A DNA stretch of 57,321 nt from a virus. Its lineage: Duplodnaviria; Caudoviricetes. The position numbers were made by a program, and so were the translations under genes. Shown here one piece after another: positions 2,935 to 22,777 of this stretch. The DNA lies in the IMG/VR virus record IMGVR_UViG_3300026097_000026, positions 1 to 57,321 of that record. One strand, 5' to 3'. Every line of letters starts with the position of its first letter. Position 1 is the first letter of the stretch. Below the pieces are notes generated by a model. It was not told the origin of the DNA, made no database searches, and was given only the letters and a program-made list of their open reading frames with translations.

Positions 2935-2935
2935 T

Positions 2936-3559
2936 ATGATTTATGATTTAAATAATTTTTTTGATAAAGTTTTTTATATTAACTTAGATAAGGACATTAA
3001 TAGAAATAAAAATATTCTTAGCCAATTTAAAAAATATAATATAACAAATTACGAAAGAATTCCTGGTGTAGTTTTTAATAGTATACCTGATAAATCATTT
3101 TGGCGTAATTTTAATAAATTTGATGAAAAATATATCTTAGGTAGTATGGGGTGTAGGGCATCTCATAAATTAGCAATAGATATAGCAATAGAAAGAAATT
3201 ATCAAAAAATATTAATTTTAGAGGATGATATTTATTTTACAGAAGATCCAAATAAAATATTAAATCAAAATTTAAATACTCTTAGTAATTGGGATATGTT
3301 ATACTTTGGTGGAACTGTAGAAAATCATTTTAATGGTCAAATAGTAGGAGCATATGCTTATGGTTTAAACCGCAAATTAATTGAAGAATCTTATTTTATG
3401 TTACCTACATCAGGTATGGAGGTTGATAATTTTTATGCTAAAATACTTTATCATATGAGTTATAATAATAGCCCTATAGGCAAATACTTAATTAAGAAAC
3501 TTGACCCTTTTAATACAGTAAAGGTTAATTTTAACTATAAATCAAATATAAGAAATTAA
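2936..3559 (+). CDS. GT25-family glycosyltransferase
   Basis: FDKVFYINLD..R, GCRASH and ILILEDD motifs; start reassigned from 2900 to the in-frame ATG at 2936 just after the upstream stop. Confidence 0.8.
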   Translation: MIYDLNNFFDKVFYINLDKDINRNKNILSQFKKYNITNYERIPGVVFNSIPDKSFWRNFNKFDEKYILGSMGCRASHKLAIDIAIERNYQKILILEDDIYFTEDPNKILNQNLNTLSNWDMLYFGGTVENHFNGQIVGAYAYGLNRKLIEESYFMLPTSGMEVDNFYAKILYHMSYNNSPIGKYLIKKLDPFNTVKVNFNYKSNIRN

Positions 3560-4502: not shown

Positions 4503-4997
4503 ATGGCTAATACTGATAATAAATGCAAGGATCTCGAAGTAAGAGATTATTTTACAGAAAACGGATATAGTAAATCTAAAAATTCATTAGAAGATTTATA
4601 TTCGCTACAAGCAGAAACTCAAAAAATGTATTTTAAGAAACAAGGTCGTAAACCTTTTTCTGAAATGAATATAGGTGATGTTATTGATTTTCTTATGGTA
4701 ACTAATCATGCAATTATAGATGAACTTCATGAAATGGTAGATGCAGTAGGAGGTATTGATGATGGTGTAGGTAATGCAGCATGGAAGCCATGGAAGTCTG
4801 CTAATAAAGATATTAGACAAAAATCACTATCTGATTTATCACCAGGAGATCTTAAGGAACTTAAGATGGAGTGGATTGATGTAATGCACTTTGTATTTAA
4901 TGCAGGTTTAGCATTAGGAATAACACCTAAAGAATTTTATAATTACTACCTAAGTAAGAACGAAGCGAATTGGGAAAGACAACGAAATAATTACTAA
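4503..4997 (+). CDS. gp56: T4 gp56-like dCTPase/dUTPase (all-alpha NTP pyrophosphatase)
   Basis: IIDELHEM, AAWKPWKS, ELKMEWIDVMHFVFN and YYLSKNEANWERQRNNY are collinear with T4 gp56. Confidence 0.85.
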   Translation: MANTDNKCKDLEVRDYFTENGYSKSKNSLEDLYSLQAETQKMYFKKQGRKPFSEMNIGDVIDFLMVTNHAIIDELHEMVDAVGGIDDGVGNAAWKPWKSANKDIRQKSLSDLSPGDLKELKMEWIDVMHFVFNAGLALGITPKEFYNYYLSKNEANWERQRNNY

Positions 4998-5008
4998 AAT
5001 AAAAATAT

Positions 5009-6412
5009 ATGCTATTAGACATAACTCAAGAAGATAGACAATTATGGGTATCTTATTATAACTTAAATGGTGAAACTAGATTTAAAATATATGACTTAAA
5101 ACCTGATGATATGTTTAATTGGGAAGTCTGCTCAGAAGGTGATCCTAAAGCAGATCCAAAAATAACTAATTGGGATGGTAGACCGGTTAAAAAAGCTAGG
5201 TCTAGGTATTTAAATAAGTATCGTCAAATAGAATATTTATATTCATTACCTGAATCCGACAAGAAATTAATATATGGGTACTATTATCCTAAGACTTATT
5301 TTGTTGATATTGAAGTTGAGGTTACTGATTCATTCCCAGAACCTTCTAAAGCAGAAAACCCAGTAACAGCAATATGTATTGTTACTCCATCTAAGGAATG
5401 TATTGTTTTGGCTACTAAAGATTTAAGTAGAGAAAAGCAAAATAAAATACAAAAACAAATTGATGAACATTTTTCTAATTTAAATGAAACTTTTAGTTTT
5501 CATTTTAAACATTTTAAGTCAGAATATGATATGATGTATACCTTTCTTAAATCATTTGTTAGAAAAATGCCAATGATGACAGGATGGAATTATATTAATT
5601 TTGACTGGAAGTATATAATTACTCGATCAAGAAAACTTGGTATAGATCCTTCAATAGCATCGCCCATCGATCGTCTCTTTGGTAGGGATGAATTCCCATG
5701 CCATGTAGGTATAACCGATTATTTAGATATCTATGCAAAATGGGATAGAACTGTTGATATTAAAGAAGATTTTAAGTTAGATACAGTAGGTGAAGCTGTT
5801 GTTGGGGTTAAAAAGGTTAAATATGATGGCACTATCCAAGATATGTACGAAAGGGAGTATCCTAAATATATTTTTTATAATGCAATTGATACTGCATTGG
5901 TATATTTAATTCATAAAAAAATTAAAACAATGGAAATTGCTTTAACTATTGCTCATATGAGTGAAATTAGTATATTTAAAGCAAGTTCACCTGTTGCAAT
6001 TACTGAATCTTTATTAGCAAGAGAATTTTTATCATCAAACAGAGTTATGGCAAAAGATCCTAAAGCACCACCAGTAAAAAGACAACAATATGAAGGTGCT
6101 TTTGTTAAAGAACCTAAAACAGGTAAACACTCTGCTGTTGCTGCATTTGATTTTGCTTCACTATATCCTTCAATTATGAGACAATTAAATGTATCACCTG
6201 AGAGCTTTATAAAAAAGGTTGATTCTAACAAAAGAAAACAAGAAGAATCTGATGATAAAATTGTTTCAGTTACAGGAGCAGTATATTCTACTGAAAAATC
6301 AATTCTTAAAACAATATTAACAAGACTCTATTCACAACGACGTGAGTATAAGAAAACATCTTTTGAATTACAACAAAAAGCATATGACATGGAAAAAGAG
6401 CTTAAAGTCTAA
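5009..6412 (+). CDS. gp43A: family B DNA polymerase, N-terminal half (3'-5' exonuclease + motif A)
   Basis: ExoI FVDIEVE, ExoII GWNYINFDWKY, ExoIII YNAID, YEGAFVKEP, motif A FDFASLYPSIM; stops in the fingers helix; motifs B and C absent. Confidence 0.9.
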   Translation: MLLDITQEDRQLWVSYYNLNGETRFKIYDLKPDDMFNWEVCSEGDPKADPKITNWDGRPVKKARSRYLNKYRQIEYLYSLPESDKKLIYGYYYPKTYFVDIEVEVTDSFPEPSKAENPVTAICIVTPSKECIVLATKDLSREKQNKIQKQIDEHFSNLNETFSFHFKHFKSEYDMMYTFLKSFVRKMPMMTGWNYINFDWKYIITRSRKLGIDPSIASPIDRLFGRDEFPCHVGITDYLDIYAKWDRTVDIKEDFKLDTVGEAVVGVKKVKYDGTIQDMYEREYPKYIFYNAIDTALVYLIHKKIKTMEIALTIAHMSEISIFKASSPVAITESLLAREFLSSNRVMAKDPKAPPVKRQQYEGAFVKEPKTGKHSAVAAFDFASLYPSIMRQLNVSPESFIKKVDSNKRKQEESDDKIVSVTGAVYSTEKSILKTILTRLYSQRREYKKTSFELQQKAYDMEKELKV

Positions 6413-9270: not shown

Positions 9271-9711
9271 ATGAAAAAATATAATTTAGGATTTGTTGCA
9301 GGTAATTTTGATTTACTACACCCTGGGTATATTCATACTTTTGAAGAAGCAAAAAAGCATTGTGAAAGATTTATAGTATTTTTACAACGAGATCCATCTG
9401 AGCATAGAAAATCTAAATATAAACCTGTTATACCTGAATGGGATAGGTATAAAGCACTAATGTCTATCAGATATATTGATGAAGTATACATGTATCAAAC
9501 TGAAGAAGAATTGCTTGATTTAATAAAATATTGGAAACCTGATCTTAGGATTTTAGGAGAAGATTATATTGGCCAACCGTTCACTGGTGATGATTTACCT
9601 ATCAAAGTTATTTATACATCCAGGTCTCATAATTGGTCTACTACTAAATTAAAAGACTTAATTACTAAGCAGACTATAAAACAAAATCCTAGTATAATTA
9701 GTGAAGAATAA
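9271..9711 (+). CDS. HIGH-type cytidylyltransferase (TagD/RfaE-like)
   Basis: AGNFDLLHPGY (HxGH variant), SIRYIDEV, LGEDY, WSTTKLK. Confidence 0.85.
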   Translation: MKKYNLGFVAGNFDLLHPGYIHTFEEAKKHCERFIVFLQRDPSEHRKSKYKPVIPEWDRYKALMSIRYIDEVYMYQTEEELLDLIKYWKPDLRILGEDYIGQPFTGDDLPIKVIYTSRSHNWSTTKLKDLITKQTIKQNPSIISEE

Positions 9712-9722
9712 AATAAATAACA

Positions 9723-10223
9723 ATGAAACAGAAAACATCAGCAGGTTTAGCAATTATATATGATAATAAAATCCTACTAGCTCATCCTACTAATCGAAGA
9801 TGGTATAATTCATACGGCATTCCTAAAGGGGGCGTAGATAAAGGCGAAACTTATCTAGAAGCTGCAATACGAGAAACTAAAGAAGAAGTTGGGATTACGG
9901 TTCCTAGGAAAATAATAGATAAAAAAGAAAATACATTTTTTGTTTCATCTTCATCAAAAAAGAAAAAGAGTTATAATAAAATAGTATATTACTACATAGT
10001 TAAAATAGATAGCTTATCTCAATTAGGTATCAATGATTTAAGAATTTCTAAAAACCAATTACAGCTTGATGAGGTTGATTGGGCTGGTTTTTTAGATTAT
10101 GAAGAAGTACAAAAAAGAATAACACCATCACAAATACCATTGATAAATAATTTAATATCAAAGGGTCTATTAGAATCAACTGTATTAAATTATGAAAAAT
10201 TTACTGAATCCAAAAAGTCTTAA
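9723..10223 (+). CDS. Nudix hydrolase
   Basis: Nudix box GGVDKGETYLEAAIRETKEEVG. Confidence 0.9.
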   Translation: MKQKTSAGLAIIYDNKILLAHPTNRRWYNSYGIPKGGVDKGETYLEAAIRETKEEVGITVPRKIIDKKENTFFVSSSSKKKKSYNKIVYYYIVKIDSLSQLGINDLRISKNQLQLDEVDWAGFLDYEEVQKRITPSQIPLINNLISKGLLESTVLNYEKFTESKKS

Positions 10224-11268
10224 TTATAACGACTTATTAAATCGTGAACCTATTTTAACTAATAAAGATACAATCCTTTCTTATATTAAAGGGAAGAGAG
10301 TATTGGTCACTGGTGGTTGTGGGTCTATTGGTAGTGAAATCGTTAGACAATTAATAAAGTTTGAAGCAAGTTCTATTATTGTATATGATAATGCTGAAAC
10401 ACCTCTTTTTTATTTAGAACAAGAAATTTCTAAGTTTAATAAAAATATTCATATAAGATATGTAATTGGTGACGTTAGGGATAAAAATAGACTTAATGAA
10501 ATTTTTGAAAGCTTTATGCCTAATGTAGTTTTTCATGCAGCTGCATATAAACATGTTCCTATGATGGAGAGTAATCCAATAGAGGCAATAAAAACTAATG
10601 TATTAGGTACAAAAAATATATCAGATGTTTCGTATCACTATGGTATAGAAAAATTTGTAATGGTATCAACTGATAAGGCGGTTAATCCTACTAATATAAT
10701 GGGTGCTACAAAAAGAATTGCTGAAATTTATACCCAGTACTTAAATCAAAAATCAAATACACAGTTTATTACAACCAGATTTGGAAACGTTTTAGGAAGT
10801 CAAGGATCAGTAATTCCAACATTCATAGACCAAATTAACACAGGTGGTCCTGTTAGTGTTACACATAAAAACGTTATTAGGTATTTTATGACTATCCAGG
10901 AAGCTTGTCAACTTGTATTACAAGCTTCCTCAATCGGCAAAGGTGGTGAAATTTATTTATTTGATATGGGTGAACCTGTAAAAATATTTGATTTGGCTAA
11001 AAAACTTATTTCTTTAGCAGATGATGATGTTGGTATTGAAATTATTGGGTTAAGGCCTGGTGAAAAATTATATGAAGAACTTTTATGTAATGGTGAAAAC
11101 ACAATCCCAACAAAAGATCCTAATATTATGAAGCTTAATCATACTGAATTAAACTTTAAATCATTAATACCTGAAATAGAAAAATTAGCTGAAATTAAAA
11201 ATAATGATTTTTATAAAATAATATCAATAGTTAAAAATATAGTTTCAGAATTTAAAAGAGAATCTTAG
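10192..11268 (+). CDS. pglF: UDP-GlcNAc 4,6-dehydratase (PglF/CapD catalytic domain)
   Basis: TGGCGSIGSE, FHAAAYKHVP, STDKAVNPTNIMGATKR, RFGNVLGS, GLRPGEKLYEEL. Confidence 0.85.
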   Translation: MKNLLNPKSLNYNDLLNREPILTNKDTILSYIKGKRVLVTGGCGSIGSEIVRQLIKFEASSIIVYDNAETPLFYLEQEISKFNKNIHIRYVIGDVRDKNRLNEIFESFMPNVVFHAAAYKHVPMMESNPIEAIKTNVLGTKNISDVSYHYGIEKFVMVSTDKAVNPTNIMGATKRIAEIYTQYLNQKSNTQFITTRFGNVLGSQGSVIPTFIDQINTGGPVSVTHKNVIRYFMTIQEACQLVLQASSIGKGGEIYLFDMGEPVKIFDLAKKLISLADDDVGIEIIGLRPGEKLYEELLCNGENTIPTKDPNIMKLNHTELNFKSLIPEIEKLAEIKNNDFYKIISIVKNIVSEFKRES

Positions 11269-11269
11269 T

Positions 11270-11839
11270 ATGAGTGAAGTAAATATATTTGGTAAAGGTG
11301 GTCATGCAAAAGTTATAAAATCAATAATAGAACATAATATAGATGAGGAACTTGGTACTATTATGGATGATAAGGATTATTTAAAAATTGACACTGGCCA
11401 TTGGATAATAGGAATAGGCGATAATACAATTAGAAAGGAAAGAGCTTATGGTATATTAAAGAATGAATCTTTTTATACTTTAATTAGTAAATCTTGTATA
11501 CTACCAAAAGATAATAATATAGGTAAAGGTTCTGTCATATTTCATGGTGCGATTATACAAACAAATACTAAAATAGGAAATCATTGTATAATTAATACTA
11601 ATGCTAATGTAGATCACGACTGTGTTATTGGAGATTTTGTACATATTGCACCAGGTTGTACTTTATGTGGAAATGTTTCTATAGGTGAAGGGACTTTTAT
11701 AGGGGCTGGTACAACTATTATACCTGGAATTACTATAGGTAAGAATTGTATAATTGGTGCTGGTTCAACTGTAGTTAGAGACATTCCTGATAATACTAAA
11801 GCCTTTGGTAACCCTTGTACATTTAAAGAATTATTATGA
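11270..11839 (+). CDS. pglD: sugar N-acetyltransferase (PglD/NeuD family, left-handed beta-helix)
   Basis: GKGGHAKVI, GIGDNTIR, VDHDC and hexapeptide repeats. Confidence 0.85.
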   Translation: MSEVNIFGKGGHAKVIKSIIEHNIDEELGTIMDDKDYLKIDTGHWIIGIGDNTIRKERAYGILKNESFYTLISKSCILPKDNNIGKGSVIFHGAIIQTNTKIGNHCIINTNANVDHDCVIGDFVHIAPGCTLCGNVSIGEGTFIGAGTTIIPGITIGKNCIIGAGSTVVRDIPDNTKAFGNPCTFKELL

Positions 11840-12948
11840 AAAGGATATATTTATCACCTCCACATATGTCAGGCGATGAGCTTAATTATATCAAAGAAGC
11901 ATTTGATCAAAACTGGGTAGCTCCAATTGGACCACAACTTAATAAGTTTGAAGAGTTGGTTAAGACTTATGTAGGATCAAATCATGCAGTGGCAGTTAAT
12001 TCTGGTACAAGTGCAATTCATTTAGCTCTTAAAGTTTTAGGTATTAAAGAAAATGATACTGTTTTATGCTCTACTATGACATTCATAGGATCAGTTAATC
12101 CTATTTTATATGAAAGAGCAAATCCAGTTTTTATTGATTCAGAAAGTAATACATGGAACATGGATCCGTATTTATTAGAACAATCAATTATTGATTTAAT
12201 AAAGAAAAATAATAAACCAAAGGCGATACTTCTAGTTCATGTTTTTGGTATGCCTTCTAATTTAACTACTATTAAATCAATATCTGATTTTTATGGTATT
12301 CCCTTAATTGAGGATGCAGCTGAATCTCTAGGATCTACTTACAAAAATAAACATACCGGTACATGGGGTGATATTGGCATTTATTCATTTAATGGAAATA
12401 AGCTCTTATCTACATCAGGTGGTGGTATTTTAGTAACTGATAATAAAACTCTTGCAACTAAAGCAAGATTTTTATCAACACAAGCTAAAGAAGATAAGCC
12501 ATATTATTATCATAAAGAATTAGGTTATAATTATAGAATGAGTAATATTGTAGCATCAATAGGAATTGGTCAAATTAATGTAATTGAAGAAAGAATAAAA
12601 AGGACACGAGAAATTCATAAAATATATAAGAGTGAATTAGGAGACTGGTTTGATTGTATTTTAACTGAAGGTAATACTATTAGAAGTAACTATTGGCTTA
12701 CATGTGGCATTTCTAATGAGCGTTTTGAGCCAAATAAAATGATTAATCATTTAAATAATAAAAATATAGAAGCTAGGAGAGTGTGGTACCCGATGCATAG
12801 GCAGCCTATTTTATTTAACAGAACTAAATATATAAATGGAACTAGTGATAATCTATTTAAATGTGGTATATGTTTACCTTCAGGTTCTTCGATGTCAAAT
12901 GATGATTTAGGTAGAGTAATAGATTCTTTTAAAAAATATAAAAAATAA
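11836..12948 (+). CDS. pglE: DegT/DnrJ/PglE sugar aminotransferase
   Basis: IYLSPPHM, SGTSAIHLAL, IEDAAESLG, SFNGNK (PLP Lys), GYNYRMSN, CLPSGS. Confidence 0.85.
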   Translation: MKRIYLSPPHMSGDELNYIKEAFDQNWVAPIGPQLNKFEELVKTYVGSNHAVAVNSGTSAIHLALKVLGIKENDTVLCSTMTFIGSVNPILYERANPVFIDSESNTWNMDPYLLEQSIIDLIKKNNKPKAILLVHVFGMPSNLTTIKSISDFYGIPLIEDAAESLGSTYKNKHTGTWGDIGIYSFNGNKLLSTSGGGILVTDNKTLATKARFLSTQAKEDKPYYYHKELGYNYRMSNIVASIGIGQINVIEERIKRTREIHKIYKSELGDWFDCILTEGNTIRSNYWLTCGISNERFEPNKMINHLNNKNIEARRVWYPMHRQPILFNRTKYINGTSDNLFKCGICLPSGSSMSNDDLGRVIDSFKKYKK

Positions 12949-12949
12949 T

Positions 12950-13846
12950 ATGATATTTTCATACGAAGACTTTCTATTAAATGAAAGCGTCAATGATTCC
13001 AACTTTAGCATCCTATTAGAAGCTAATCTTAATAATAAAATTAACAAAAATATTAAGTTTGGTATTGTAATTCCTACTCACAAAATATCAGATGGTGCTG
13101 CGCAAACTGGTCGTAAAAACTTTATGAATACTCCTGATTTACTTAAGGCTTCATTAGGTTCAATTAGAGACCAGAAATATGACAATTATGTAGTTTATTT
13201 AGTTGGCGATGCTTATGATGGTGATGAAGAAATTAAAACTGTTATTAGTGAAGTTATGCCTCAGGGCAAATGTAAATTTCATAATATGAAAACACCAGGA
13301 GAAAGAAATAAAGGATATACAAAACAACAATTTAGGTATACTGCAGGTGCTGGCGCAATGAACAAGGGTTTAGAACTAGCAAAAAATGATGGTATTGACT
13401 ATATAGTTAGATTAGACCATGATGATAAATGGAAACCTAATCACCTTGAATTATTAGCAAAAGCATATACACAGTATCCTGAATTAGCTTATGTTTTTAC
13501 TAGAAGCAGAAAAAAAGTTGATGCTAATAATTCCTCAAAAAAGTTTATGTATCAACCTAGTGAAGAAAGACATATGACAAAAATTGAACCTAATAATTTA
13601 GGTTATACTCATGGTGATGTAAGTCATTCAGCTATGTCATGGAGACCTTCAATGACAGGGGATTTAAGATACAGAAATCCTGATCAACAAAGTAAAACTA
13701 ATCCTAAAATACCTTTAACAAAAACTATACAAGCTGATGTTGATATGTTTAAGAGAATGATGGATTCAATTAAAAAAGCAGGTCATAAATATATGTATAT
13801 ACCTAAATTAACAAGCTTTTATAGAAACCGAAAGGGAAAGTTTTAA
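12950..13846 (+). CDS. GT2-family glycosyltransferase with N-terminal capsid-targeting-like peptide
   Basis: FGIVIPTH, SIRDQKY, AMNKGL, YIVRLDHDDKW; N-terminus MIFSYEDFLLNES. Confidence 0.8.
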   Translation: MIFSYEDFLLNESVNDSNFSILLEANLNNKINKNIKFGIVIPTHKISDGAAQTGRKNFMNTPDLLKASLGSIRDQKYDNYVVYLVGDAYDGDEEIKTVISEVMPQGKCKFHNMKTPGERNKGYTKQQFRYTAGAGAMNKGLELAKNDGIDYIVRLDHDDKWKPNHLELLAKAYTQYPELAYVFTRSRKKVDANNSSKKFMYQPSEERHMTKIEPNNLGYTHGDVSHSAMSWRPSMTGDLRYRNPDQQSKTNPKIPLTKTIQADVDMFKRMMDSIKKAGHKYMYIPKLTSFYRNRKGKF

Positions 13847-13893: not shown

Positions 13894-14070
13894 ATGGAAA
13901 CATTTAAAGAAATTAAATCATTAATAGAAAACACCGAGGAAGACATCGAAAAGTTTTATGTAAAGGGTAATAAGGCAGCTGCAGTAAGAATTCGTAAATC
14001 TATGCAAGAAATTAAAAACTTAGCTCAAAAACTTAGAGTACATGTACAAGAAACTAAAAATAATTTATAA
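13894..14070 (+). CDS. histone H1-like (Hc1-family) small protein, Bacteroidota type
   Basis: 58-aa ORF missing from the track: METFKEIKSLIENTEEDIEKFYVKGNKAAAVRIRKSMQEIKNLAQKLRVHVQETKNNL; KFY.KGN.AA..R.RK..QE.K.LAQ..R pattern. Confidence 0.75.
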   Translation: METFKEIKSLIENTEEDIEKFYVKGNKAAAVRIRKSMQEIKNLAQKLRVHVQETKNNL

Positions 14071-14118
14071 ACATTTTAATTAGTTCATCTCTCCCTATAA
14101 GGTATTCCCTTATAAACC

Positions 14119-14149
14119 AAAAGACCATTAATATTAATGGTCTTTTTTT
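14119..14149 (+). terminator. terminator / perfect 28-bp palindrome
   Basis: AAAAGACCATTAAT|ATTAATGGTCTTTT followed by more T. Confidence 0.65.
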
Positions 14150-14167
14150 ATGCATAAATATTTTACT

Positions 14168-14194
14168 TAAACCATTTTCATTATTTATGTATAA
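14168..14194 (+). promoter_or_regulatory. putative early/middle promoter TAAAC-N17-TATAA heading the modification operon
   Basis: Copy of the recurring bipartite motif. Confidence 0.6.
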
Positions 14195-14212
14195 TATTTA
14201 AATAATATTAAA

Positions 14213-14764
14213 ATGGAAAAATGTTTAATCATTGATTTTGATGATACTTTAATTAAAACTATTGAAGTTCATGCAGAAGCATGGAGGAAATCATTAAATA
14301 AAACTTTAGATATTGACATACCAAAGGATGCTATTCTTAACGATATAAATTATGGTATTAATTTATTGCATGAAAAGTTTCAATTAACTAAAGATGAAAT
14401 TAAAAAATCCTCACAACTTAAAAAAGAATTTTTTAACCAAACTTTACATAATACTAAAGTTAATGAAGTTTTATTTTACTTAATAAAGAGTAAAATATTT
14501 GACCATGTAATAATTGCTTCAAATTCATCTAAAGAAAATTTAACTAGACTATTACATTATCATAATATAGATTTAAATTTATTTAGTTTAATATTAACAC
14601 GAGATGATGTAAAAAATAAAAAACCGTATCCTGATATGGGTAACATTATTTTTGATGAATTCTCTGACTATGATAGAAGTGATTTTATTATGATAGGTGA
14701 TTCTGATGTTGATAAAATATTTTCCACAAAAATAGATATAAGATGCATAATGGTAAACTTTTAA
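14213..14764 (+). CDS. HAD-superfamily phosphatase/phosphomutase
   Basis: Motif I IIDFDDTL, IASNS, KKPYPD, IGDSDVD. Confidence 0.85.
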   Translation: MEKCLIIDFDDTLIKTIEVHAEAWRKSLNKTLDIDIPKDAILNDINYGINLLHEKFQLTKDEIKKSSQLKKEFFNQTLHNTKVNEVLFYLIKSKIFDHVIIASNSSKENLTRLLHYHNIDLNLFSLILTRDDVKNKKPYPDMGNIIFDEFSDYDRSDFIMIGDSDVDKIFSTKIDIRCIMVNF

Positions 14765-15489
14765 TTGGAAACAGCGGTGATAAAGTATATGTTGATAAAA
14801 ACATAGTAATTAAAACTGCTGGTGTACATAAAGATAAATTTAAACAACAAGCTAACTTTTTATTAAATTGCGATCATCCTAATTTTATTAATATAAAGAA
14901 AATAAATGATGAGGAATATCACATGGATACTCATCCAACATTTTACAATTTTATATGTAATTCTGATTTAGGTGAATCGTTGTATAGATTAGAAGAATTA
15001 TTAGATATCATAGATGGTTTTAACTCGATTGGCGCCGATGTAAAAACAGAAACATATCTTAATAAATTAGAAAGCAGAACAGGATATAAGTACAGTGGTA
15101 AGTTTGATGCAGCATCTTCTTATGGTTTTGTACATGGGGATTTAACAATAAGTAATATCTTGTATGATGATCGCTTTATCTTTATTGACCCGAGAGGTAC
15201 TGAAGAACAAAACTATTATGATTATGGAAAACTTATGCAGTCGTTTGTTATGAACTATGAAGCCCATATATACAATGAATGGAATCCTAAATATTTAGAG
15301 TTTTGTAAAGAAGCTGAAAAAATAATGTATGAAAGATATGATGAATATCAACTTAAATTCTTTTTGGCTGTTCATTTATTGGGAGCAGTACCTTTTTTTG
15401 AATTAAACGAAAGGTATGAAATGGCTAAGTTATTTTTAGAAAAAGGTCATTCATTATTTAATGAATTAGGAATAAAATATAGTAAATGA
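14743..15489 (+). CDS. APH/choline-kinase-like phosphotransferase (putative sugar kinase)
   Basis: Brenner motif VHGDLTISNIL, FIFIDPRG, YYDYGKLMQS. Confidence 0.8.
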   Translation: MHNGKLLIGNSGDKVYVDKNIVIKTAGVHKDKFKQQANFLLNCDHPNFINIKKINDEEYHMDTHPTFYNFICNSDLGESLYRLEELLDIIDGFNSIGADVKTETYLNKLESRTGYKYSGKFDAASSYGFVHGDLTISNILYDDRFIFIDPRGTEEQNYYDYGKLMQSFVMNYEAHIYNEWNPKYLEFCKEAEKIMYERYDEYQLKFFLAVHLLGAVPFFELNERYEMAKLFLEKGHSLFNELGIKYSK

Positions 15490-16196
15490 AAAATAAAGTA
15501 AAAAAAGCAATTATACTTGCTGCAGGTAAATCCAAAAGATATGGTTCAAATAAATTAACAGATCCTATTTTAGGAAAAACTACAGTACAATATGCTGTTG
15601 AATTTTGTATTGATAATGGTATAGATGATGTTTATATAACTATAAGTAAATCAGACTTCTTTTTTAAGAATTATAATACTAAATTGTCTCACCCAATTAT
15701 TGAAAGTTTATTATCATATAAAGATAAAATTAATATCTTTTATGAATTCCAAAAGGAAGATGAGTATGGTCCAGGCGCTGCTATTAAGGCATGGGAAGGT
15801 GCCTTTTATGAACCGTTTTTATGTTTATTTGGTGATAATTATTATGAAGGTAATATAGAGTTAGACAAACATAATCCTAATCAAACTATAATTACATATA
15901 AAGATTATGAAACTAGAGCTCGTAATTTACAATTGGCAACAATAATAGATGATGTTGTAGTTGAAAAACCCCATGGTGTAGTAAACGGTAGATATTTTTG
16001 TGGATATATGATATTTGCTAAAGAAGCATTTGATAATCTTAAAAATATTAAATTATCAGGTAGAAATGAATATGAAATTACACATCTCATAAACTCAATG
16101 AGCAATCCTCAATATAAAAAATTAAATATATGTTGGTACGATTTAACATATGAAGAAGATAAAAAAGTAATAGAAAGTATAATTAATAACAGTTAA
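15486..16196 (+). CDS. sugar-1-phosphate nucleotidyltransferase (RmlA-like)
   Basis: AIILAAGKSKRYG, LFGDNYY, VVEKP, SGRNEYEITHL. Confidence 0.85.
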   Translation: MKNKVKKAIILAAGKSKRYGSNKLTDPILGKTTVQYAVEFCIDNGIDDVYITISKSDFFFKNYNTKLSHPIIESLLSYKDKINIFYEFQKEDEYGPGAAIKAWEGAFYEPFLCLFGDNYYEGNIELDKHNPNQTIITYKDYETRARNLQLATIIDDVVVEKPHGVVNGRYFCGYMIFAKEAFDNLKNIKLSGRNEYEITHLINSMSNPQYKKLNICWYDLTYEEDKKVIESIINNS

Positions 16197-16197
16197 T

Positions 16198-17448
16198 ATG
16201 AAAGAAGTAAAACGCGTTGGGTTTTTCAAATTAGGAAAGGCTATAAAATTTAATGAAAAGAGCTGGAATGCTATTGGTGGTGATTGTGAACCTAAGCAGT
16301 TAATAACATCTATAGCAAAAAGAAATCCTAAAGTAGAATATTGGCTTCTTAGTCCAAATGATTTAGGTAAATTTAGAGCAAAGGAGACTCCAGTTAAAAG
16401 CCCTTTATTTGGTCCTTCTCCTGAAACAAGTTCTGTACCATCAAACATTAAAGAATTTCATTCACAAATGAAAGATCGCAAATCTATTGATGAAACTACT
16501 GATAAAATAAAATCATTAAACCTTGATTTTATTTTCTTTTATACTGGTCCTACTAGTACAGTTAATATTCCTAATTACATAAATAAAAAGGACGGTACCG
16601 GTATGGTTAAATCATTAGACTTTTTTAAATACTATGCAGCTCCTATTATTAAATCATTAAATGAAATTGAAAAAAGAATTCCTATAGTAGGTTTACTGGT
16701 TGATAATAGATTTACTATAAGCGCTAAAGATTTTCATGCTCATAATAGACCAACTTATTACCTAGCACAAAATAATTTTGAAAAAGAAGAACAATATTTT
16801 TCTAATCCTCCTAATAGAGATACTCTAACAATCAAATCTAAATTTGAATATTCAGGTATTGAAACTGTCTTTTTATTAGATAAGAAAAGATATGATATTG
16901 ATGAATTATTTGAAAAGAAAACAGAGTATTCTTTTGTAATGCTACAAAACCAAGGAAAGGGTTCGGGTGGTGGTATGGATAGATGGGATCCTGTTAGAGA
17001 TTATATTGTTGAAAATGACATAAAAACAGATATTTATGGAAAGTGGGATACTGAAATTAAAGAAAAATATCCTGAATGGTTTAAAGGTGAGCGTAGGATT
17101 GAATCTATGTCTGATGAATTAGTTAAAACTAAATATACTTTTTGTGTACCTATTAAAGAAGGGATGGTTACTTCAAAATATGCAGAAATGCTTCATTATG
17201 GAATTATACCATTTTTACATCCATCATACGACACTGAATACAATGTATTCCCTGAAGGTCATTTTATCAGATGTAAAAGCCCAGAAGATCTTAAAAAGAA
17301 AATTGAGTTTTTAGAAAGTAACCCTGATCACTATAAAAAATTATTTTATAATTTACAAAGTAAGTATATCAAGGATGAATACTATACTGGTGAACATGTA
17401 GATAATAAAATCTGGGATGCGTATAATAAAATAACAAATAACAACTAA
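16198..17448 (+). CDS. T4 DNA beta-glucosyltransferase-like (GT-B) DNA glycosyltransferase
   Basis: Collinear segments with T4 BGT as recalled: LLVDNRF/LFTDIRL, FEYSGIE/FEYFPIE, DIYGK/EFFGN, VTSKYAEMLHYGIIPFLHPSYDT/ITLRVWETMASDAVMLIDEEFDT. Confidence 0.7.
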   Translation: MKEVKRVGFFKLGKAIKFNEKSWNAIGGDCEPKQLITSIAKRNPKVEYWLLSPNDLGKFRAKETPVKSPLFGPSPETSSVPSNIKEFHSQMKDRKSIDETTDKIKSLNLDFIFFYTGPTSTVNIPNYINKKDGTGMVKSLDFFKYYAAPIIKSLNEIEKRIPIVGLLVDNRFTISAKDFHAHNRPTYYLAQNNFEKEEQYFSNPPNRDTLTIKSKFEYSGIETVFLLDKKRYDIDELFEKKTEYSFVMLQNQGKGSGGGMDRWDPVRDYIVENDIKTDIYGKWDTEIKEKYPEWFKGERRIESMSDELVKTKYTFCVPIKEGMVTSKYAEMLHYGIIPFLHPSYDTEYNVFPEGHFIRCKSPEDLKKKIEFLESNPDHYKKLFYNLQSKYIKDEYYTGEHVDNKIWDAYNKITNNN

Positions 17449-17458
17449 ATTAATAAAA

Positions 17459-18481
17459 ATGTATAACAAAAATACAAAAATTTTAATAACCGGCGGTGCT
17501 GGTTTTATTGGTACTAACTTAATTAATGATTTACTTAAAAAAGGTCATAATCCTGACAGTATAGCAGTAATTGACAACCTATCACATGGTACTTTTTTAG
17601 ATGAAGTACATGGTAAATTAAAATATTTTTATAATGAAGATATCAGAAACCAATATGTAGAAAAAATTATATCAGATTTTAAACCTGAGTACATATTTCA
17701 TTTTGCTGGGTTAGTATCAATTTATGACTGTAATAGCAACCCATATGAAGCTGTTGATATTAACGTTTTAGGTAGTATTAACATTCTTAATGCAGCAGTT
17801 GAAAATAATGTTAATAGGGTCATTTTTAGTGAAACTTCAGCAGTTTACGAAAATTGTGAAATGGGATCTAATGGATATAATGAAAATCAATCTGATCCTA
17901 CCACCATATATTCAACTACGAAAGCATCATTGGCATTATTAGCAGAGTCATATGCTAGAACAAAAGGTTTAAAATATACTGCGCTAAGATATTTTAATGT
18001 AGCTGGACCTTTACAAGATTATGAAAGAACGGTACCTCCTGTGTTTGCTGGTTTTATTTTAAGAATTATGGGAGGGCATAAACCAATCATCTTTGGCGAT
18101 CCTATGAAGTCACGTGATTATATTGATGTTGATGATGTTAATGATTTTCATATTTTATGTATGAAAGATCAAAGAACAGAGAATCGTACATTTAATTTAG
18201 GTACTGGTAAAGATACAAACCTTTTAGAATTAAAGGATATTATAGGTGAATGCATGAATGTTAGTAATGTTCAGTATAATTCATATGATGCAATTGCAGG
18301 TGAGGCTGTAAATATTAAAGCTGATATATCAGCAGCCACTGAATTAGGATGGGTACCTAAGAACGATATTAAAGATACTATTAATAAAACAATAGATTAT
18401 CTTAAAAAAGAAGTAAAGGTAGGTAATATTAATCCTAAAACCTTTATGGAAAATATAGAAATAAAAAAGGTAAAAATATGA
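17459..18481 (+). CDS. NAD-dependent NDP-sugar epimerase/dehydratase (GalE-like SDR)
   Basis: ITGGAGFIG, IDNLSHG, YSTTK (YxxxK), LRYFNVAG, RDYIDVDD. Confidence 0.9.
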   Translation: MYNKNTKILITGGAGFIGTNLINDLLKKGHNPDSIAVIDNLSHGTFLDEVHGKLKYFYNEDIRNQYVEKIISDFKPEYIFHFAGLVSIYDCNSNPYEAVDINVLGSINILNAAVENNVNRVIFSETSAVYENCEMGSNGYNENQSDPTTIYSTTKASLALLAESYARTKGLKYTALRYFNVAGPLQDYERTVPPVFAGFILRIMGGHKPIIFGDPMKSRDYIDVDDVNDFHILCMKDQRTENRTFNLGTGKDTNLLELKDIIGECMNVSNVQYNSYDAIAGEAVNIKADISAATELGWVPKNDIKDTINKTIDYLKKEVKVGNINPKTFMENIEIKKVKI

Positions 18482-19743
18482 GCAAAGAAAATATAAAATT
18501 TGGTACTATAATTCCATTAATTGGAGGTAGTGCAATAGGTTGTTCACAGTCGGCTGGTGTTAAGCCTACGTTTCATTTAAGTTATGATGCATTTGCAGCA
18601 AATGAAAGCCATCTAGAAAAATATTGGGATGATGTACCTATGTACAGATTAGATCAACCTGACTTAGAAATACCAAAAAATACATTCGAAAATGTAGACT
18701 ATATAAATAGTGTTTGCCCATGCGCTGGTCTTAGTTTATTAAACTCAGCAAGTGGAAGCTCTGCATCACGAGGTTCAGATGCAGTTCAAAATAAATGGAT
18801 GTATGATTCGTCAAATTATATTTTAGAAAATGTTAAACCTAAAGTACTGTGGGGTGAAAATGCTCCAGGATTATTTACTAAAATGGGAGAAGGTGTAGTA
18901 AAGAGATTAAGGGAAATTGGTGAACAGCATGGGTATAGTTTTTCATTAATAAAAACCAATACTGAATTGCATGGTATCCCACAAAGAAGAATGAGAACTT
19001 TTTACTTTTTTTGGAATACTCCAACTGTACCTATGTTAAACTGGAAATTTAGAGAAAAAAGTAGTTTATTGGACTATTTAAATAAAATACCAGAGTCTGC
19101 TACACTTCAAGATATGTTTATGGTTAATGGTAATGTAACCGAGCACTTTAGGCCTTATGAATTTGTTTTAGAAAAAGAAGGTTTAACTCATTTTGAATTT
19201 TCTAAAAAAATTAAAAAAGGTACAATTTCACAATATTTGGAAAAAAATAAATTGGTTGATGAATGTATAGAGTGGTTAAAGGAAAAATATCCTAATGAAG
19301 GGTTTTCTAATAAAAAGAGTACAAAAACATTTATTGATATGTTGGAGCATCAGAAAGCAAAAGTTGCTGACGGTAAAGGGTATTGGGATGCATCTCCTCA
19401 CTTTTTTCATGATTCTTTTTCTGCGTTAATTGGTCGTAATATGTTTAATGGTGTTCACCCGGTTGAAGATCGTTATTTAAATGTAAGAGAAATGCTTCAT
19501 TTAATGGGAATGCCGCATGATTTTGAAATCAGTGATCCTAGGCATGTTAATCATATTGCACAAAATGTACCAGTAAGAACGGCACAAGATATGGCAGATG
19601 AAGTTAAGAATTTTTGTTTAGGCAATGCTAAGATGACTAATTATTCTTTTATGAAACAGGATAATACTAAACAAAAAATAATCTACTCTGAAGAATATAA
19701 TAGCACTCCTAAGAAAAAATATAGAGCTCAAAAAATAATTTAA
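18478..19743 (+). CDS. C5-cytosine DNA methyltransferase-fold enzyme with atypical cofactor-binding motifs
   Basis: Motif IV CPCAGLS, VI GENAPGL, VIII HGIPQRRMRTF, IX RYLNVREMLHLMGMP, X IAQNVPV; motif I reads IIPLIGG instead of LFxGxGG. Confidence 0.8.
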   Translation: MSKENIKFGTIIPLIGGSAIGCSQSAGVKPTFHLSYDAFAANESHLEKYWDDVPMYRLDQPDLEIPKNTFENVDYINSVCPCAGLSLLNSASGSSASRGSDAVQNKWMYDSSNYILENVKPKVLWGENAPGLFTKMGEGVVKRLREIGEQHGYSFSLIKTNTELHGIPQRRMRTFYFFWNTPTVPMLNWKFREKSSLLDYLNKIPESATLQDMFMVNGNVTEHFRPYEFVLEKEGLTHFEFSKKIKKGTISQYLEKNKLVDECIEWLKEKYPNEGFSNKKSTKTFIDMLEHQKAKVADGKGYWDASPHFFHDSFSALIGRNMFNGVHPVEDRYLNVREMLHLMGMPHDFEISDPRHVNHIAQNVPVRTAQDMADEVKNFCLGNAKMTNYSFMKQDNTKQKIIYSEEYNSTPKKKYRAQKII

Positions 19744-19750
19744 ATTTATA

Positions 19751-20746
19751 ATGAAAGATAATGTATTAGCCATAGGTGTATCACATAGGGATCATTTTAG
19801 TATAATGATGGCATATTACCCTAAAGGTATACATGAAAATTTTGACATTGTACTATTTGTTGATAATCGTAATGATATTTTACAAGATATAAAAGATCTT
19901 ATTGATCATTATAATATTCCTGCATTTAAAAATGCAAAAATAGTTATTAATACTAAAATGATGGATGAATATTCATCAAAGTTTAGTCTTAGTGAAAGAG
20001 GTCATAAATTTTTATTTGAATATTCTGCTTGCTTTAAGTTACTTGTTCCCATTTACTTAAGAGAACATTTTAATACTAAAAAGACTTTTGCTATAGATGA
20101 TGATATTTTTATTTTAAGAGACTTAAGTCCATTATTTAATAAATATCAAGGTTGGGTATTTAAAAAGGAAAATTTATTTGATTTTAAAAATAAAAATAAA
20201 CATAGAGTACTTAAAGAATTTAATTCTGTTTTTAACTCTAATTTTACTCTTTCACAAATGGATTCTTTGTCATTAAATAGTGGAACTATTATATATGATA
20301 ATTATGATGATAAGTATCCAGAGTATGTGAAAAAATTTATTGAAAATGATTATATCCAATCAATGTTTTTTGACCATACTGGTTATAGTGCATGGACAGT
20401 AGAGCAAAGATTTCAGCATTTTAATATGCATAGACTAATGAAAGAAAGAAATGATACAAAACTGTTTGAAGGTAAGGAGGTTAGACTTATTACGAGTCTA
20501 GGAAAGGAAAAGGAAGGTGATAAATTTCTTAAGATAGTGGTACCATATTTAATTCATTATACCGTTGGTGTTAAAAAACCTCTATGGCTTAGAAAATTTA
20601 TTCCTGGGATTGCTTGGAGATTTAATAATTATCAGTTTACTCCTAAATTTGAACTTAAAGATATTCTCTATAATAAACATTGGGAGCCTACACGGTTTAA
20701 ATTAATACATAAGAAAAAGAAAGAAAAAGTTAAATCTTTATTCTAA
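19751..20746 (+). CDS. GT8-like (GT-A) glycosyltransferase
   Basis: FAIDDDIFIL (DxD), LNSGTII, EQRF, LIHYTVGVKKPLW follow the GT8 motif order. Confidence 0.6.
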   Translation: MKDNVLAIGVSHRDHFSIMMAYYPKGIHENFDIVLFVDNRNDILQDIKDLIDHYNIPAFKNAKIVINTKMMDEYSSKFSLSERGHKFLFEYSACFKLLVPIYLREHFNTKKTFAIDDDIFILRDLSPLFNKYQGWVFKKENLFDFKNKNKHRVLKEFNSVFNSNFTLSQMDSLSLNSGTIIYDNYDDKYPEYVKKFIENDYIQSMFFDHTGYSAWTVEQRFQHFNMHRLMKERNDTKLFEGKEVRLITSLGKEKEGDKFLKIVVPYLIHYTVGVKKPLWLRKFIPGIAWRFNNYQFTPKFELKDILYNKHWEPTRFKLIHKKKKEKVKSLF

Positions 20747-20794: not shown

Positions 20795-21544
20795 ATGAAG
20801 ACAACTATTGAAAAAATTGACGGGTATGAATTAAGCTCGTTTATTAAGAAACTTCTTCCTATTGACAAATTTATCTTTTTAAAGATAGGTCCTACTGGAA
20901 CAGTTTCTTCTGTTTATTTCCCAGAAAGGGATGCAGTTAAACTTGTTAATGTTAGTACTGAAGATTTATTAACAGCTGAAATAGAAAAGCCTATTAAGGT
21001 AAGCTTTTATAATGGATCAAAGGTAGTTGAAGCATTAACTCATTTTAACGGAGGAATCAAGGGAAGTATTAATTATTCTGAATTGGACGGAGAATTAATG
21101 GCTAGTGATTTTATTATTAGTGATGATGATTTAGAAATTAAATTGGCATGTGCTGACCCATCGCTTTCATTTATGGAAATGAGTAAAGATGAAATGGAAA
21201 GAGCATTTGGAACTGAAGGTTCTATGTTTGAATTTGACTTACTTACTACTCATGTTGATAGAATGAAATCTCTATTTAATCTTGAAAAAGAAGAAGATAC
21301 ATTTACTCTCTATGTAAGTGATAAGGGTATTGGTATAAAAGGTGCTTCTTATGATGCTGATATTGTTCACTCATATGAAGGTGATGCAGAAAAAGGCTCT
21401 CATGTAGTAATTTACAAAAAATACCTTAATTTATTAGACAAAGAAAATTATCGTGTTGTGGTATGTGAAAATAAAGTAGTATTTAAATCTCTTGATACTG
21501 ATACTCATTTAACTGTTGCGGTTGCAATGGTTGATGAAGAATAA
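20795..21544 (+). CDS. gp45: probable sliding clamp (gp45-like)
   Basis: 249 aa acidic alpha/beta protein directly upstream of the polymerase; C-terminal NLLDKENYRVVV...LTVAVA resembles the gp45 end; no strict motif. Confidence 0.55.
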   Translation: MKTTIEKIDGYELSSFIKKLLPIDKFIFLKIGPTGTVSSVYFPERDAVKLVNVSTEDLLTAEIEKPIKVSFYNGSKVVEALTHFNGGIKGSINYSELDGELMASDFIISDDDLEIKLACADPSLSFMEMSKDEMERAFGTEGSMFEFDLLTTHVDRMKSLFNLEKEEDTFTLYVSDKGIGIKGASYDADIVHSYEGDAEKGSHVVIYKKYLNLLDKENYRVVVCENKVVFKSLDTDTHLTVAVAMVDEE

Positions 21545-21634: not shown

Positions 21635-22777
21635 ATGACTGATAAGGAAAAGCAATTAAAAATTCAAGAAATAGAGGAAACTAAATACCAAGCTTCCCTT
21701 TTTATGAATAAAGAACAAGCTGTAAAATTAATGTTAAATAGTATTTACGGTGCATTTGGTAATCCTTATTTTTATTTCTTTAATGTAGATATTGCTGAAA
21801 CAATTACATTACAAGGTAAAGATGCAATATTATATACTGAAAAACTTCTTAATAAGTATTTCACTGAATTCTGGCATAAAGATTTAGATTTACATAAGAA
21901 GCTAGGAATAACCGTAACAGGTAGAATTGAAAATCCTGTGGGTATTTACATTGATACTGATTCCGTCTATGTTAAGTTTGAAGAAGTAATTAAAAAATCT
22001 GAAGGTTGGTCTGGTGATGAAAAGCAATTTATATTAAAGTTGTATGAATTAAGATTAAGAGATTATATTGAAAAAATCATGCAAAAATATGCTGATGATA
22101 ATAATGCTGAAAACTTCTTAAGCTTTGAATTAGAAAGTATTGCAAAAAATGCAATTTGGTTAGCCAAGAAAAAATATATGCAAAATATAGTTTGGAAGGA
22201 TCCTGACATTCACTATGATGATTTATCAAAAATTAGTGCAAAAGGATTTGAAATTATTCAATCATCAACCCCACTATTTGCAAGAGAAAAACTTAAAGAT
22301 TTATTAACATACATTTTTTCTGTTGAAAAATTAGATATGAAAGAGTTTTCTGCTCTTCTTAAAAAAATCAAAAGAGAATTTAGGTTAGCTAATGTTGATC
22401 AAATAAGTTTTTCAAAAAAGGTAAATAATTATCAAAAATATATTGTTAGTGATTATGATGCTTTTGAAATTGCATCTAGGTGCCCTATTGGTGTTAGGTC
22501 AGCGGGCTATCATAATTACCTTTTAAATAATTCAGGGCTCAAGGGTAAATATCAACCGCTAGGTAACGGTGAAAAACTTAAAATGTATTTTTCTGAGGAT
22601 ACTACTTGTGATGTATTTGCATATAGCCCTGGTGATCATCCTTACGAATTTGCACCTTCTGTTGATTATGATAGGCAGTTTGAAAAAACTATTTTGGATC
22701 CTATTAATAGAGTAATTGTTGCAATGGGATTTAAAGGCTTTAATCGTAATCTTATTTATACAACAAGTCTTTTTTAA
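21635..22777 (+). CDS. gp43B: family B DNA polymerase, C-terminal half (motifs B, C, thumb)
   Basis: Motif B KLMLNSIYGAFG, ITLQGK, motif C YIDTDSVY, AKKKY, KGFEIIQSSTP. Confidence 0.9.
   Translation: MTDKEKQLKIQEIEETKYQASLFMNKEQAVKLMLNSIYGAFGNPYFYFFNVDIAETITLQGKDAILYTEKLLNKYFTEFWHKDLDLHKKLGITVTGRIENPVGIYIDTDSVYVKFEEVIKKSEGWSGDEKQFILKLYELRLRDYIEKIMQKYADDNNAENFLSFELESIAKNAIWLAKKKYMQNIVWKDPDIHYDDLSKISAKGFEIIQSSTPLFAREKLKDLLTYIFSVEKLDMKEFSALLKKIKREFRLANVDQISFSKKVNNYQKYIVSDYDAFEIASRCPIGVRSAGYHNYLLNNSGLKGKYQPLGNGEKLKMYFSEDTTCDVFAYSPGDHPYEFAPSVDYDRQFEKTILDPINRVIVAMGFKGFNRNLIYTTSLF

Follow-up and report, generated by a model that had tools for sequence, protein, structure and literature searches.

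The window analysed here is the whole of the IMG/VR virus record IMGVR_UViG_3300026097_000026 (57,321 bp), which CheckV rates as ~20% complete. It carries seven coupled open reading frames (ORFs) on the + strand, spanning positions 14213 to 20746; neighbours overlap by up to 22 nt or lie at most 10 nt apart (Table 1). In order, these encode a HAD-superfamily protein, an APH-like kinase, a sugar-1-phosphate nucleotidyltransferase (NT), a GT-B glycosyltransferase related to the DNA β-glucosyltransferase (BGT) of phage T4 (hereafter GTB), a GalE-like epimerase, an atypical protein with the fold of C5-cytosine methyltransferases (hereafter MT) and a GT8-like glycosyltransferase. The original prediction, made from the letters of the window, had taken the seven genes for a DNA hypermodification operon: a module with its own supply of nucleoside-diphosphate (NDP) sugar, a BGT-like transferase and a second glycosyltransferase (GT). 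The neighbourhoods of these genes in other phages lend that reading good support, and the three elements of the module stand, the second GT being swappable.

Across the window the G+C content is 25-33%, and almost all genes lie on the + strand, so that the common direction of the operon genes carries little weight. The core genes comprise a family-B DNA polymerase in two genes, ribonucleotide reductase, a UvsX-like recombinase, a DnaB-like helicase, SbcCD and a clamp loader; the virion genes comprise portal, prohead protease, major head protein, large terminase, tail sheath and tail tube. Contigs with close homologs of GTB reach 218,985 bp. The window is a piece of a jumbo myovirus of marine type with a T4-like core.

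Close relatives share the gene order HAD-kinase-NT-GTB-epimerase-MT, with proteins 49-85% identical and with other small genes inserted at differing places in their operons. The GT8-like protein shares 42-48% identity with its counterparts in most close relatives (73-74% with that of one contig), and its gene is absent from nine close-family loci. Because the core order is intact throughout the close family while the GT8-like gene diverges or drops out, the operon is composed of six core genes plus one swappable tailoring slot. At the nucleotide level a blastn search of the operon against the phage collection returned zero matches. Immediately upstream, a palindrome followed by a T-run looks like a terminator between the preceding sugar genes and the operon. 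The single promoter motif that had been placed before the first gene was not confirmed: a sigma-70 scan gave no + strand site between 13847 and 14212, and no −35 partner was found for the TATAAT hexamer. Between the two sets of sugar genes lies a small Lys/Ala-rich ORF of ~58 aa (13895-14071), which we take to resemble bacterial histone-H1-like (Hc1-type) proteins.

Table 1. Coordinates of the operon and of related features in the 57,321-bp window.
Feature	Position	Strand	Size, evidence or remark
dCTPase (dCTP/dCDP pyrophosphatase) of the T4 gp56 type	4503-4997	+	BLASTP, RB69 gp56
Family-B DNA polymerase, two halves	5009-6412 and 21635-22777	+	~15 kb apart, with ribonucleotide reductase, sugar genes and the modification operon in between
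Four-gene sugar block: PglF/PseB-like 4,6-dehydratase, NeuD/PglD-family acetyltransferase, LegC/PglE-like aminotransferase, GT2	10192-13846	+	NCBIfam, Pfam
13-bp perfect palindrome, then T-run	14120-14149	+	read from the sequence; terminator scan without it
TATAAT hexamer	14190-14195	+	18 nt 5′ of the first ATG; candidate −10 element, read from the sequence
HAD-superfamily enzyme, predicted sugar-phosphate phosphatase or phosphomutase	14213-14764	+	183 aa; Pfam HAD_2 1e-16
APH-like (protein-kinase-fold) sugar kinase	14743-15489	+	248 aa; phrog_21938, phrog_4098
Sugar-1-phosphate nucleotidyltransferase (NT)	15486-16196	+	236 aa; Pfam NTP_transf_3 3.2e-7, NTP_transferase 4.2e-5
GTB: GT-B glycosyltransferase, distant homolog of T4 DNA β-glucosyltransferase	16198-17448	+	416 aa; profile and fold
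NAD-dependent NDP-sugar epimerase, extended short-chain dehydrogenase/reductase (GalE-like)	17459-18481	+	340 aa; Pfam Epimerase 2.1e-45; phrog_540 5.5e-57
MT: atypical C5-cytosine-methyltransferase-fold protein	18478-19743	+	421 aa; PF00145 8.6e-20
GT8-like GT-A glycosyltransferase, accessory	19751-20746	+	331 aa; ESM Atlas only

Each fold assigned in the original prediction was borne out, if to differing degrees. GTB is a real but distant relative of T4 BGT. From the single sequence the link is not visible in Pfam or in a PDB sequence search (in single-sequence PDB searches, chance-level matches were all that GTB, the kinase or the GT8-like protein obtained). With a profile of 77 family sequences, T4 β-glucosyltransferase is the top PDB match at E=1.1e-7 and the sole one below E=1e-3, the next match lying at 1.4e-3. 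The AlphaFold2 (AF2) model of GTB (pLDDT 93.8) gives the same answer: its best Foldseek match is T4 BGT (1QKJ, E=1.8e-10), ahead of BshA-type enzymes, with a TM-score of 0.65 by target and 11% identity in the fold alignment. At E≤1e-3 the GT has 390 representative clusters. GTB is predicted to glycosylate 5-hydroxymethylcytosine (5hmC) in DNA. The GT8-like call comes from an ESM Atlas feature (GT8 cluster, 0.96) and from structure searches (TM 0.61-0.68); the protein has no Pfam match, and a DDD motif is visible in its sequence. It probably adds a second sugar.

The first three genes of the operon would supply the sugar. The HAD and NT assignments follow from the Pfam matches in Table 1. For the HAD protein the best NCBIfam models are of the beta-phosphoglucomutase family, every one below cut-off, and BLAST gave no match to RB69 gp51, an AfhF-like HAD. 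The NCBIfam sugar-1-phosphate nucleotidylyltransferase models likewise fall below cut-off for NT, which shares 31% identity with the N-terminus of gp62 of Enterococcus phage Planchet. The kinase has no Pfam match; besides the two PHROGs, it is recognised through APH-family clusters (ESM Atlas, 0.97) and through the C-terminal halves of NT-APH fusion proteins, matching the C-terminal part of the fusions of Planchet and of distant locus L050 at 36-38% identity over 53-63 aa. We predict that it corresponds, as a separate protein, to the kinase half of the AfhE-like fusions of NT and kinase. As for the epimerase, GalE is the top NCBIfam model (141.5 bits against a cut-off of 262), the GalE and 4,6-dehydratase models score about equally, both below cut-off, and a 55%-identical copy lies directly 5′ of GTB and MT in distant locus L054. 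The transferred sugar is probably not plain glucose.

We turn now to the C5 group that receives the sugar. As the original prediction had said, neither a ThyA nor a TET/JBP match to Pfam occurs within the window; it had overlooked a dCTPase of the T4 gp56 type upstream of the operon. Enzymes of this kind typify phages that keep dCTP out of their DNA and use a modified dCTP in its place. The window protein is 36% identical to RB69 gp56 over 121 aa (BLASTP, E=1e-27), and tblastn found it in 1419 phage records, where among the matches listed the annotation is dCTPase or dCTP pyrophosphatase. The match to Pfam dUTPase_2 is weak (21.8 bits, slightly below cut-off). Searches of five related contigs with MazG (PF03819) and trimeric dUTPase (PF00692), families that are blind to the gp56 type, gave 1 and 2 records, respectively.

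The second component is found in close relatives. A divergent ThyA homolog (80.5-88.3 bits) is present in all five of the long contigs of close relatives searched, three of which also hold a canonical ThyA (292-299 bits). The top annotated tblastn matches of the divergent protein are T4-type gp42 at ~32% identity. Alignment to E. coli ThyA shows L143D, D169 and N177D in all four divergent copies included; L143 and N177 are unchanged in the canonical copies, and RB69 gp48 has E, N and D at positions 143, 169 and 177. According to the accessible text of PMC13326640, N177D in ThyA homologs marks enzymes that act on dCMP, acidic 143 those with a non-methyl product, and D169N the 5-hydroxy-dCMP synthases; the combination L143D/D169/N177D is accordingly the signature of dCMP hydroxymethylation, and not of thymidylate or 5-hydroxy-dCMP synthesis. 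By these published residue criteria the divergent ThyA of the relatives is a predicted gp42-type dCMP hydroxymethylase. 5-Hydroxycytosine (5hoC), considered as an alternative handle, was rejected on account of the D169 kept by the ThyA homologs.

The window is colinear with the related contig G001: MT starts at 18478 in the one and at 22238 in the other, and 52044-55256, which holds the sheath gene, corresponds to G001 57284-60496. The hydroxymethylase homolog of G001 lies at 78290, and by colinearity its counterpart should therefore lie ~16 kb beyond the end of the window in this phage. In G001 it is flanked by guanylate-kinase-like, thymidylate-kinase-like and ATP-grasp genes. The last of these (L065 2313-3314, in G001; YheC/D-like, 'sugar-transfer associated ATP-grasp', ~1e-6) stands directly 3′ of the hydroxymethylase homolog, a placement that hints at an extra ligation step on the modified base or the sugar. 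A further homolog, 60% identical to the dCMP-hydroxymethylase-type protein of the relatives, is encoded at 151738-152442 of LR756500.1 (uncultured phage, 462,018 bp), possibly the nearly complete genome of a phage from a related lineage.

TET/JBP dioxygenases (PF12851) were found neither in the window nor in four related contigs of 140-323 kb, in a search whose control genomes were silent and whose sensitivity is therefore unproven; the seven genes of the operon all have other assignments. Because the window holds a dCTPase, because all five relatives' contigs encode a hydroxymethylase-type ThyA and because synteny places the gene for the latter just outside the window, the C5 handle is most likely 5hmC made before replication, as in T4. 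The proposal that MT is the source of the handle thus loses its footing: the window is about a fifth of the genome, it holds the dCTPase, and its relatives carry the dCMP-hydroxymethylase-type enzyme. The original prediction had itself named, as grounds for refutation, a hydroxymethylase elsewhere in the genome that yields ordinary glucosyl-5hmC. The first part of this has come about, through relatives; the sugar, as said, is probably another one.

The same set of genes recurs in phages well outside the close family. Among 11 distant loci anchored on MT, seven have both a GTB homolog (28-33% identity) beside or near MT and a 500-600-aa fusion of NT and APH kinase, and nine have a hydroxymethylase-type ThyA homolog; some add thymidylate-kinase-like, dUTPase-like, SIS-HAD, GT25 or GT32-like genes. 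The converse search, using a GTB profile built from a 12-row alignment, gave 323 matching IMG/VR stretches, of which 80 were kept and 38 are distant; these 38 loci were not cleared of redundancy, many are short, and their GTB is 31-36% identical to the window protein. In these loci, identified via the GT alone, MT begins directly after GTB in 37 of the 38. An NT-kinase is present in 32, an AfhF-like HAD in 30 and a ThyA homolog in 23, and every one of the 16 distinct ThyA homologs from these loci carries L143D, D169 and N177D. GTB homologs adjoin hydroxymethylase homologs in phages both with and without MT. In the distant cassettes the NT-kinase resembles RB69 gp52 and the HAD protein RB69 gp51, both of which the accessible text of PMC13326640 assigns to UDP-arabinose synthesis.

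Three isolated phages carry versions of the cassette. In Pseudoalteromonas phage vB_Psh_XG4 (PP712099.1, unannotated) the genes for a ThyA-like protein, HAD, NT-kinase, GTB, a second GT-B-like protein, MT and dCTPase are contiguous within the first 7.6 kb; in the family of the window, by contrast, hydroxymethylase, kinase and NT functions and dCTPase are spread across more than 55 kb. In Bacillus phage G, 7 kb (gp301-gp310) encode a HAD, an NT, a homolog of the T4 alpha-GT and an MT homolog, gp301, which is the top viral fold match to MT (5.5e-27). Among isolated phages, these two come closest in carrying GTB and/or MT of this family in a cassette; a literature search turned up no work on the DNA of XG4 or of phage G. 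Enterococcus phage Planchet encodes a kinase, a pyrimidine hydroxymethylase, a dUTPase, an NT-kinase, GTB and a GT, and no MT. The accessible parts of the literature on S-TIM5-type cyanophages contain nothing on DNA bases.

Together the above analyses make it probable that the operon is the post-replicative half, that is, sugar supply and transfer, of a system by which a jumbo myovirus hypermodifies cytosine in the manner of T4. From the observed homologies, the dCTPase and the conserved cassette we infer the following route. A gp42-type dCMP hydroxymethylase and nucleotide kinases, expected from relatives to be encoded outside the window, would provide 5-hydroxymethyl-dCTP, and the gp56-type dCTPase would remove dCTP, so that the polymerase builds 5hmC DNA. 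On the model of the AfhE/AfhF route in RB69-type phages, the HAD protein, the APH-like kinase and NT would turn a host sugar phosphate into an NDP-sugar, which the GalE-like enzyme would epimerise. The BGT-like GTB would then move this phage-made sugar onto the hydroxyl of what is presumed to be 5hmC in DNA, and the variable GT8-like enzyme may add a further sugar.

Several points weigh against this interpretation. The hydroxymethylase does not lie within the 57-kb window, and its assignment to this phage rests on relatives, whose proteins are 70-85% identical, and on synteny. For every member of the cassette family a glycosylated cytosine is read from genes alone. The HAD, kinase and NT of the window match RB69 proteins only indirectly and there is no SIS gene, which makes the proposed sugar route an analogy. 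A PglFED-like block, a GT2, a GT25, a sulfotransferase and a sialyltransferase-like gene, all described below, are typical of surface or protein glycosylation, and some of the GTs may act on targets other than DNA. Finally, complete replacement of cytosine by 5hmC leaves an ordinary C5-methyltransferase without a substrate, and MT is unexplained under a plain T4 model.

MT is indeed both atypical and part of the module. The fold assignment is firm: in addition to PF00145, the AF2 model (pLDDT 86.4) matches M.HaeIII, M.HhaI and MET1 at ~1e-13 in Foldseek. Across 37 distinct aligned members of the family C82, the E127-N-A-P motif, Q169, R171 and R173 are present in 37, and the motif X Asn (N363) in all 36 that have a residue at this position. 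The catalytic motifs of canonical C5 DNA methyltransferases, namely IV (PC), VI (ENV), VIII (QxRxR) and X (Asn), are thus all retained, motif IV of MT reading V-C-P-C-A-G-L-S. The cofactor site is another matter. Motif I reads (V/I)-P-L-I-G-G, has no Phe, and places an invariant Leu14 (37/37) where FxGxG has its first Gly; the position aligned with the motif II Glu of MET1 is Ser in 32 members, Thr in three, Gly in one and His in one. In the CmoX structure, as far as the accessible text goes, the motif I Phe contacts the adenine and the motif II Glu the ribose of S-adenosylmethionine (SAM) (PMC12783734). No member of the MT family has either residue (0/37).

The retained cytosine-activating residues speak for catalysis. 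Because the machinery for covalent attack at C6 is kept, MT most likely acts catalytically on DNA pyrimidines of the same pathway, where it may have a supplementary, post-replicative role; it is a fixed partner of the BGT-like GT. One reading is that MT is an ordinary SAM-dependent, Dcm-like methyltransferase that methylates cytosines which escaped replacement, or host cytosines, and travels in the cassette as a second anti-restriction device. It would account for the complete fold, the invariant catalytic Cys, the Glu of the ENx motif, QxRxR and the motif X Asn, the last standing where CmoX has Arg (accessible text of PMC12783734), and it agrees with source annotations that name MT a DNA methylase. 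A plain Dcm-like role is nonetheless hard to accept, because the cofactor site is altered in every member and because the co-occurring dCTPase and dCMP hydroxymethylase should leave no unmodified cytosine. Nor would a passenger be expected directly 3′ of the GT in nearly all GTB-anchored loci, over which GTB itself has diverged so far, and one MT domain is fused to a helical domain of 5-hydroxymethyl-2′-deoxyuridine (5-hmdU) DNA kinases (see below). We regard SAM-dependent methylation by MT as a serious possibility that falls somewhat short of an even chance.

That MT performs non-methyl chemistry, either hydroxymethylation of residual cytosine for the GT or substitution at the 5-CH2OH of 5hmC, is a possibility we hold tentatively; that it does something else is unlikely. 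A stronger form of the non-methyl view, in which MT defines a new class of hypermodification enzyme, obligate partner of the BGT-like GT and working by covalent Cys-C6 catalysis without canonical SAM binding, is somewhat unlikely. It comes in two versions. In the first, MT would hydroxymethylate cytosines that were missed before replication, so that the GT covers every position; in the second, it would activate the 5-CH2OH of 5hmC for substitution by another group. To our knowledge such chemistry occurs only as an in vitro side reaction of bacterial C5-methyltransferases.

A search for longer proteins found 17, of 748-1465 aa, that contain an MT domain. In 16 of them the remainder gave no Pfam match above cut-off at E≤0.01, no PHROG of known function and no match in the loci compared. 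The other, P0286 (889 aa, on a 22,264-bp contig), joins HMUDK_hel (PF18723; residues 225-360, 6e-11), the helical domain of 5-hmdU-DNA-kinases, to an MT-family domain (503-887) that is 47% identical to the MT of locus L057. As a single sequence, this fusion is only a lead. HMUDK_hel was found in none of four related contigs.

CmoX, a C5-carboxymethyltransferase, provides a precedent for the C5-methyltransferase fold installing a non-methyl handle in phage DNA, and it ranks 17th among the fold matches of MT. Carboxymethylation of the CmoX type was therefore considered for MT and failed the motif test: the SPPC motif and the Arg at the position of M.HhaI N304 are absent from the MT family, which has xCPC/xVC and Asn (36/36), and CmoX keeps the SAM-binding Phe and Glu that the family lacks (both by the accessible text of PMC12783734).

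In its logic the system works like the glucosyl-5hmC system of T4 and the arabinosyl-5hoC system of RB69 and DLP3, and is not of the methyltransferase-TET-GT, 5hoC or CmoX type. With T4 (gp56, gp42, gp1 kinase, alpha- and beta-glucosyltransferases) it shares a gp56 homolog in the window, the gp42-type signature in relatives and the resemblance of GTB to BGT. It differs from T4 in having its own sugar-activation enzymes, an epimerase, extra GTs and a C5-methyltransferase-fold partner, and in the remoteness of the BGT match. The arabinosyl-5hoC system of RB69, DLP3 and HY126, as set out in the accessible text of PMC13326640, follows the same plan of ThyA homolog, nucleotide kinase, dCTPase, HAD phosphatase, NT-kinase and GT-B enzyme, and the placement of the RB69-type cassette between polymerase and uvsX is a shared feature. 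Unlike RB69 gp48, which has N at this position, the ThyA homologs here keep D169 (four close copies, eight distant Family A proteins and 16 further distinct homologs). In the window, moreover, separate genes encode kinase and NT, and the HAD is of a different subfamily. SIS (PF01380), the family of arabinose-5-phosphate isomerase, is absent from the window in a search whose control was positive in 14 of 14 genomes, and is present in a few distant cassettes. Conversely, no MT-fold gene occurs in the 45 kb of RB69 examined.

The third comparison is with gene clusters that combine a C5-methyltransferase, a 5mYOX/TET dioxygenase and GTs. As described in the accessible parts of PMC8256090 and bioRxiv 2023.12.21.572611, these too have a C5-methyltransferase-fold gene beside DNA glycosyltransferases, the pairing of GT and epimerase recalling their subclass II and the GT8-like second GT their GT14I/GT43I. 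In the window the MT with its invariant C82 is likewise close to a DNA GT, only the epimerase lying between GTB and MT. The difference is that the partner here is a nucleotide-level hydroxymethylase and that no TET/JBP match was obtained in the search described above. Because no dioxygenase was found, we do not count the system among these clusters. In the metavirome analysis of Pyle et al., GT-B genes are often associated with ThyS and stand near methyltransferase, APH, epimerase and clamp genes, which the accessible text gives as bulk statistics only (bioRxiv 2023.12.21.572611). Neither a cassette of ThyA homolog, C5-methyltransferase-fold protein and BGT-like GT nor a role for its MT is described in the full-text literature searched, a body that leaves outside it the supplements and figures of Pyle and Burke, where methyltransferases alongside ThyS-associated GT-B genes may be tabulated.

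The window encodes further glycan enzymes. The four-gene sugar block (10192-13846) stands directly 5′ of the operon, on the other side of the palindrome, and is kept in most close relatives and missing in some. Its NCBIfam scores are 219.8 bits for PseB (below cut-off), 193.5 for NeuD (above the cut-off of 160.8) and 380.3 for the LegC family (cut-off 420), and the GT2 matches Pfam Glycos_transf_2 at 5.6e-12. By these family matches the block looks like a route to a diacetamido-trideoxyhexose, a precursor of bacillosamine or legionaminic acid, together with a transferase; it may feed the same glycan as the operon or a different target on the virion or host surface. At 2119-3559 a sulfotransferase gene (Sulfotransfer_3 1.2e-17; NoeE-like) overlaps the start of a GT25 gene (5.2e-15), and a sulfated glycan is conceivable; a GT25 gene is also found between the GTB and MT genes of distant locus L050. 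The sole sizeable minus-strand gene of the window, 40673-41458 (−) by the head genes, matches phrog_4603 'alpha-2,3-sialyltransferase' at 1.4e-41 and, weakly, MptE-like in Pfam. A cytidylyltransferase-like gene (1.1e-14) is followed by a NUDIX hydrolase gene (5.4e-15) at 9271-10223, and a homolog of the former lies directly 5′ of the epimerase-GTB-MT genes in locus L054.

With so many glycan genes at hand, the sugar genes and GTs might decorate virion proteins or the host envelope instead of DNA, their place among replication genes being incidental. The Pgl-like block with its GT2, the pair of GT25 and sulfotransferase, and the sialyltransferase-like gene by the head genes do resemble sets for protein or lipopolysaccharide glycosylation, and GT8 and GT2 enzymes are usually directed at glycans. 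We nonetheless judge this very unlikely, since T4 BGT, a DNA enzyme, is the one PDB structure that the GTB profile reaches below 1e-3 and also the top fold match, and since in many unrelated phages the GT sits with a dCMP hydroxymethylase, a dCTPase, a nucleotide kinase and a DNA-methyltransferase-fold protein.

Least probable of all is the scheme first proposed for the operon, with no nucleotide-level hydroxymethylase and with MT installing the sole C5 handle on finished DNA for the GTs to follow: the window without ThyA or TET match, the four long related contigs without TET/JBP (control silent), the tight linkage of MT to the GT and the altered SAM-contacting residues, which make non-methyl transfer conceivable, can be cited for it, but a gp56-type dCTPase is sensible only with pre-replicative replacement, the dCMP-hydroxymethylase-type ThyA is there in all the relatives' contigs searched and accompanies MT in most of the distant MT-anchored loci, the Planchet homolog of GTB does without any MT, and a methyl group gives no acceptor hydroxyl.

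Directly downstream of the operon the original prediction had placed the sliding clamp and the polymerase. The polymerase is there, as the C-terminal half of the split family-B gene (in some distant relatives, L042 and L053, it is undivided, a gene of 830-840 aa); the clamp is unconfirmed, the ORF at 20795-21544 having zero matches in Pfam, PHROGs, NCBIfam and PDB sequences, or against RB69 gp45.

Few shields protect phages better against restriction enzymes and CRISPR nucleases than glycosylated cytosines, which are also a source of DNA-labelling enzymes. The cassette reported here is widespread, and unites a route to 5hmC like that of T4, sugars made by the phage and a C5-methyltransferase-fold enzyme that should lack a substrate if replacement is complete. 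The role of MT could reveal a safeguard that fills in where DNA modification is incomplete, or a new C5 chemistry on DNA. Since the complete cassette is present in a cultured phage, vB_Psh_XG4, the question is directly testable.

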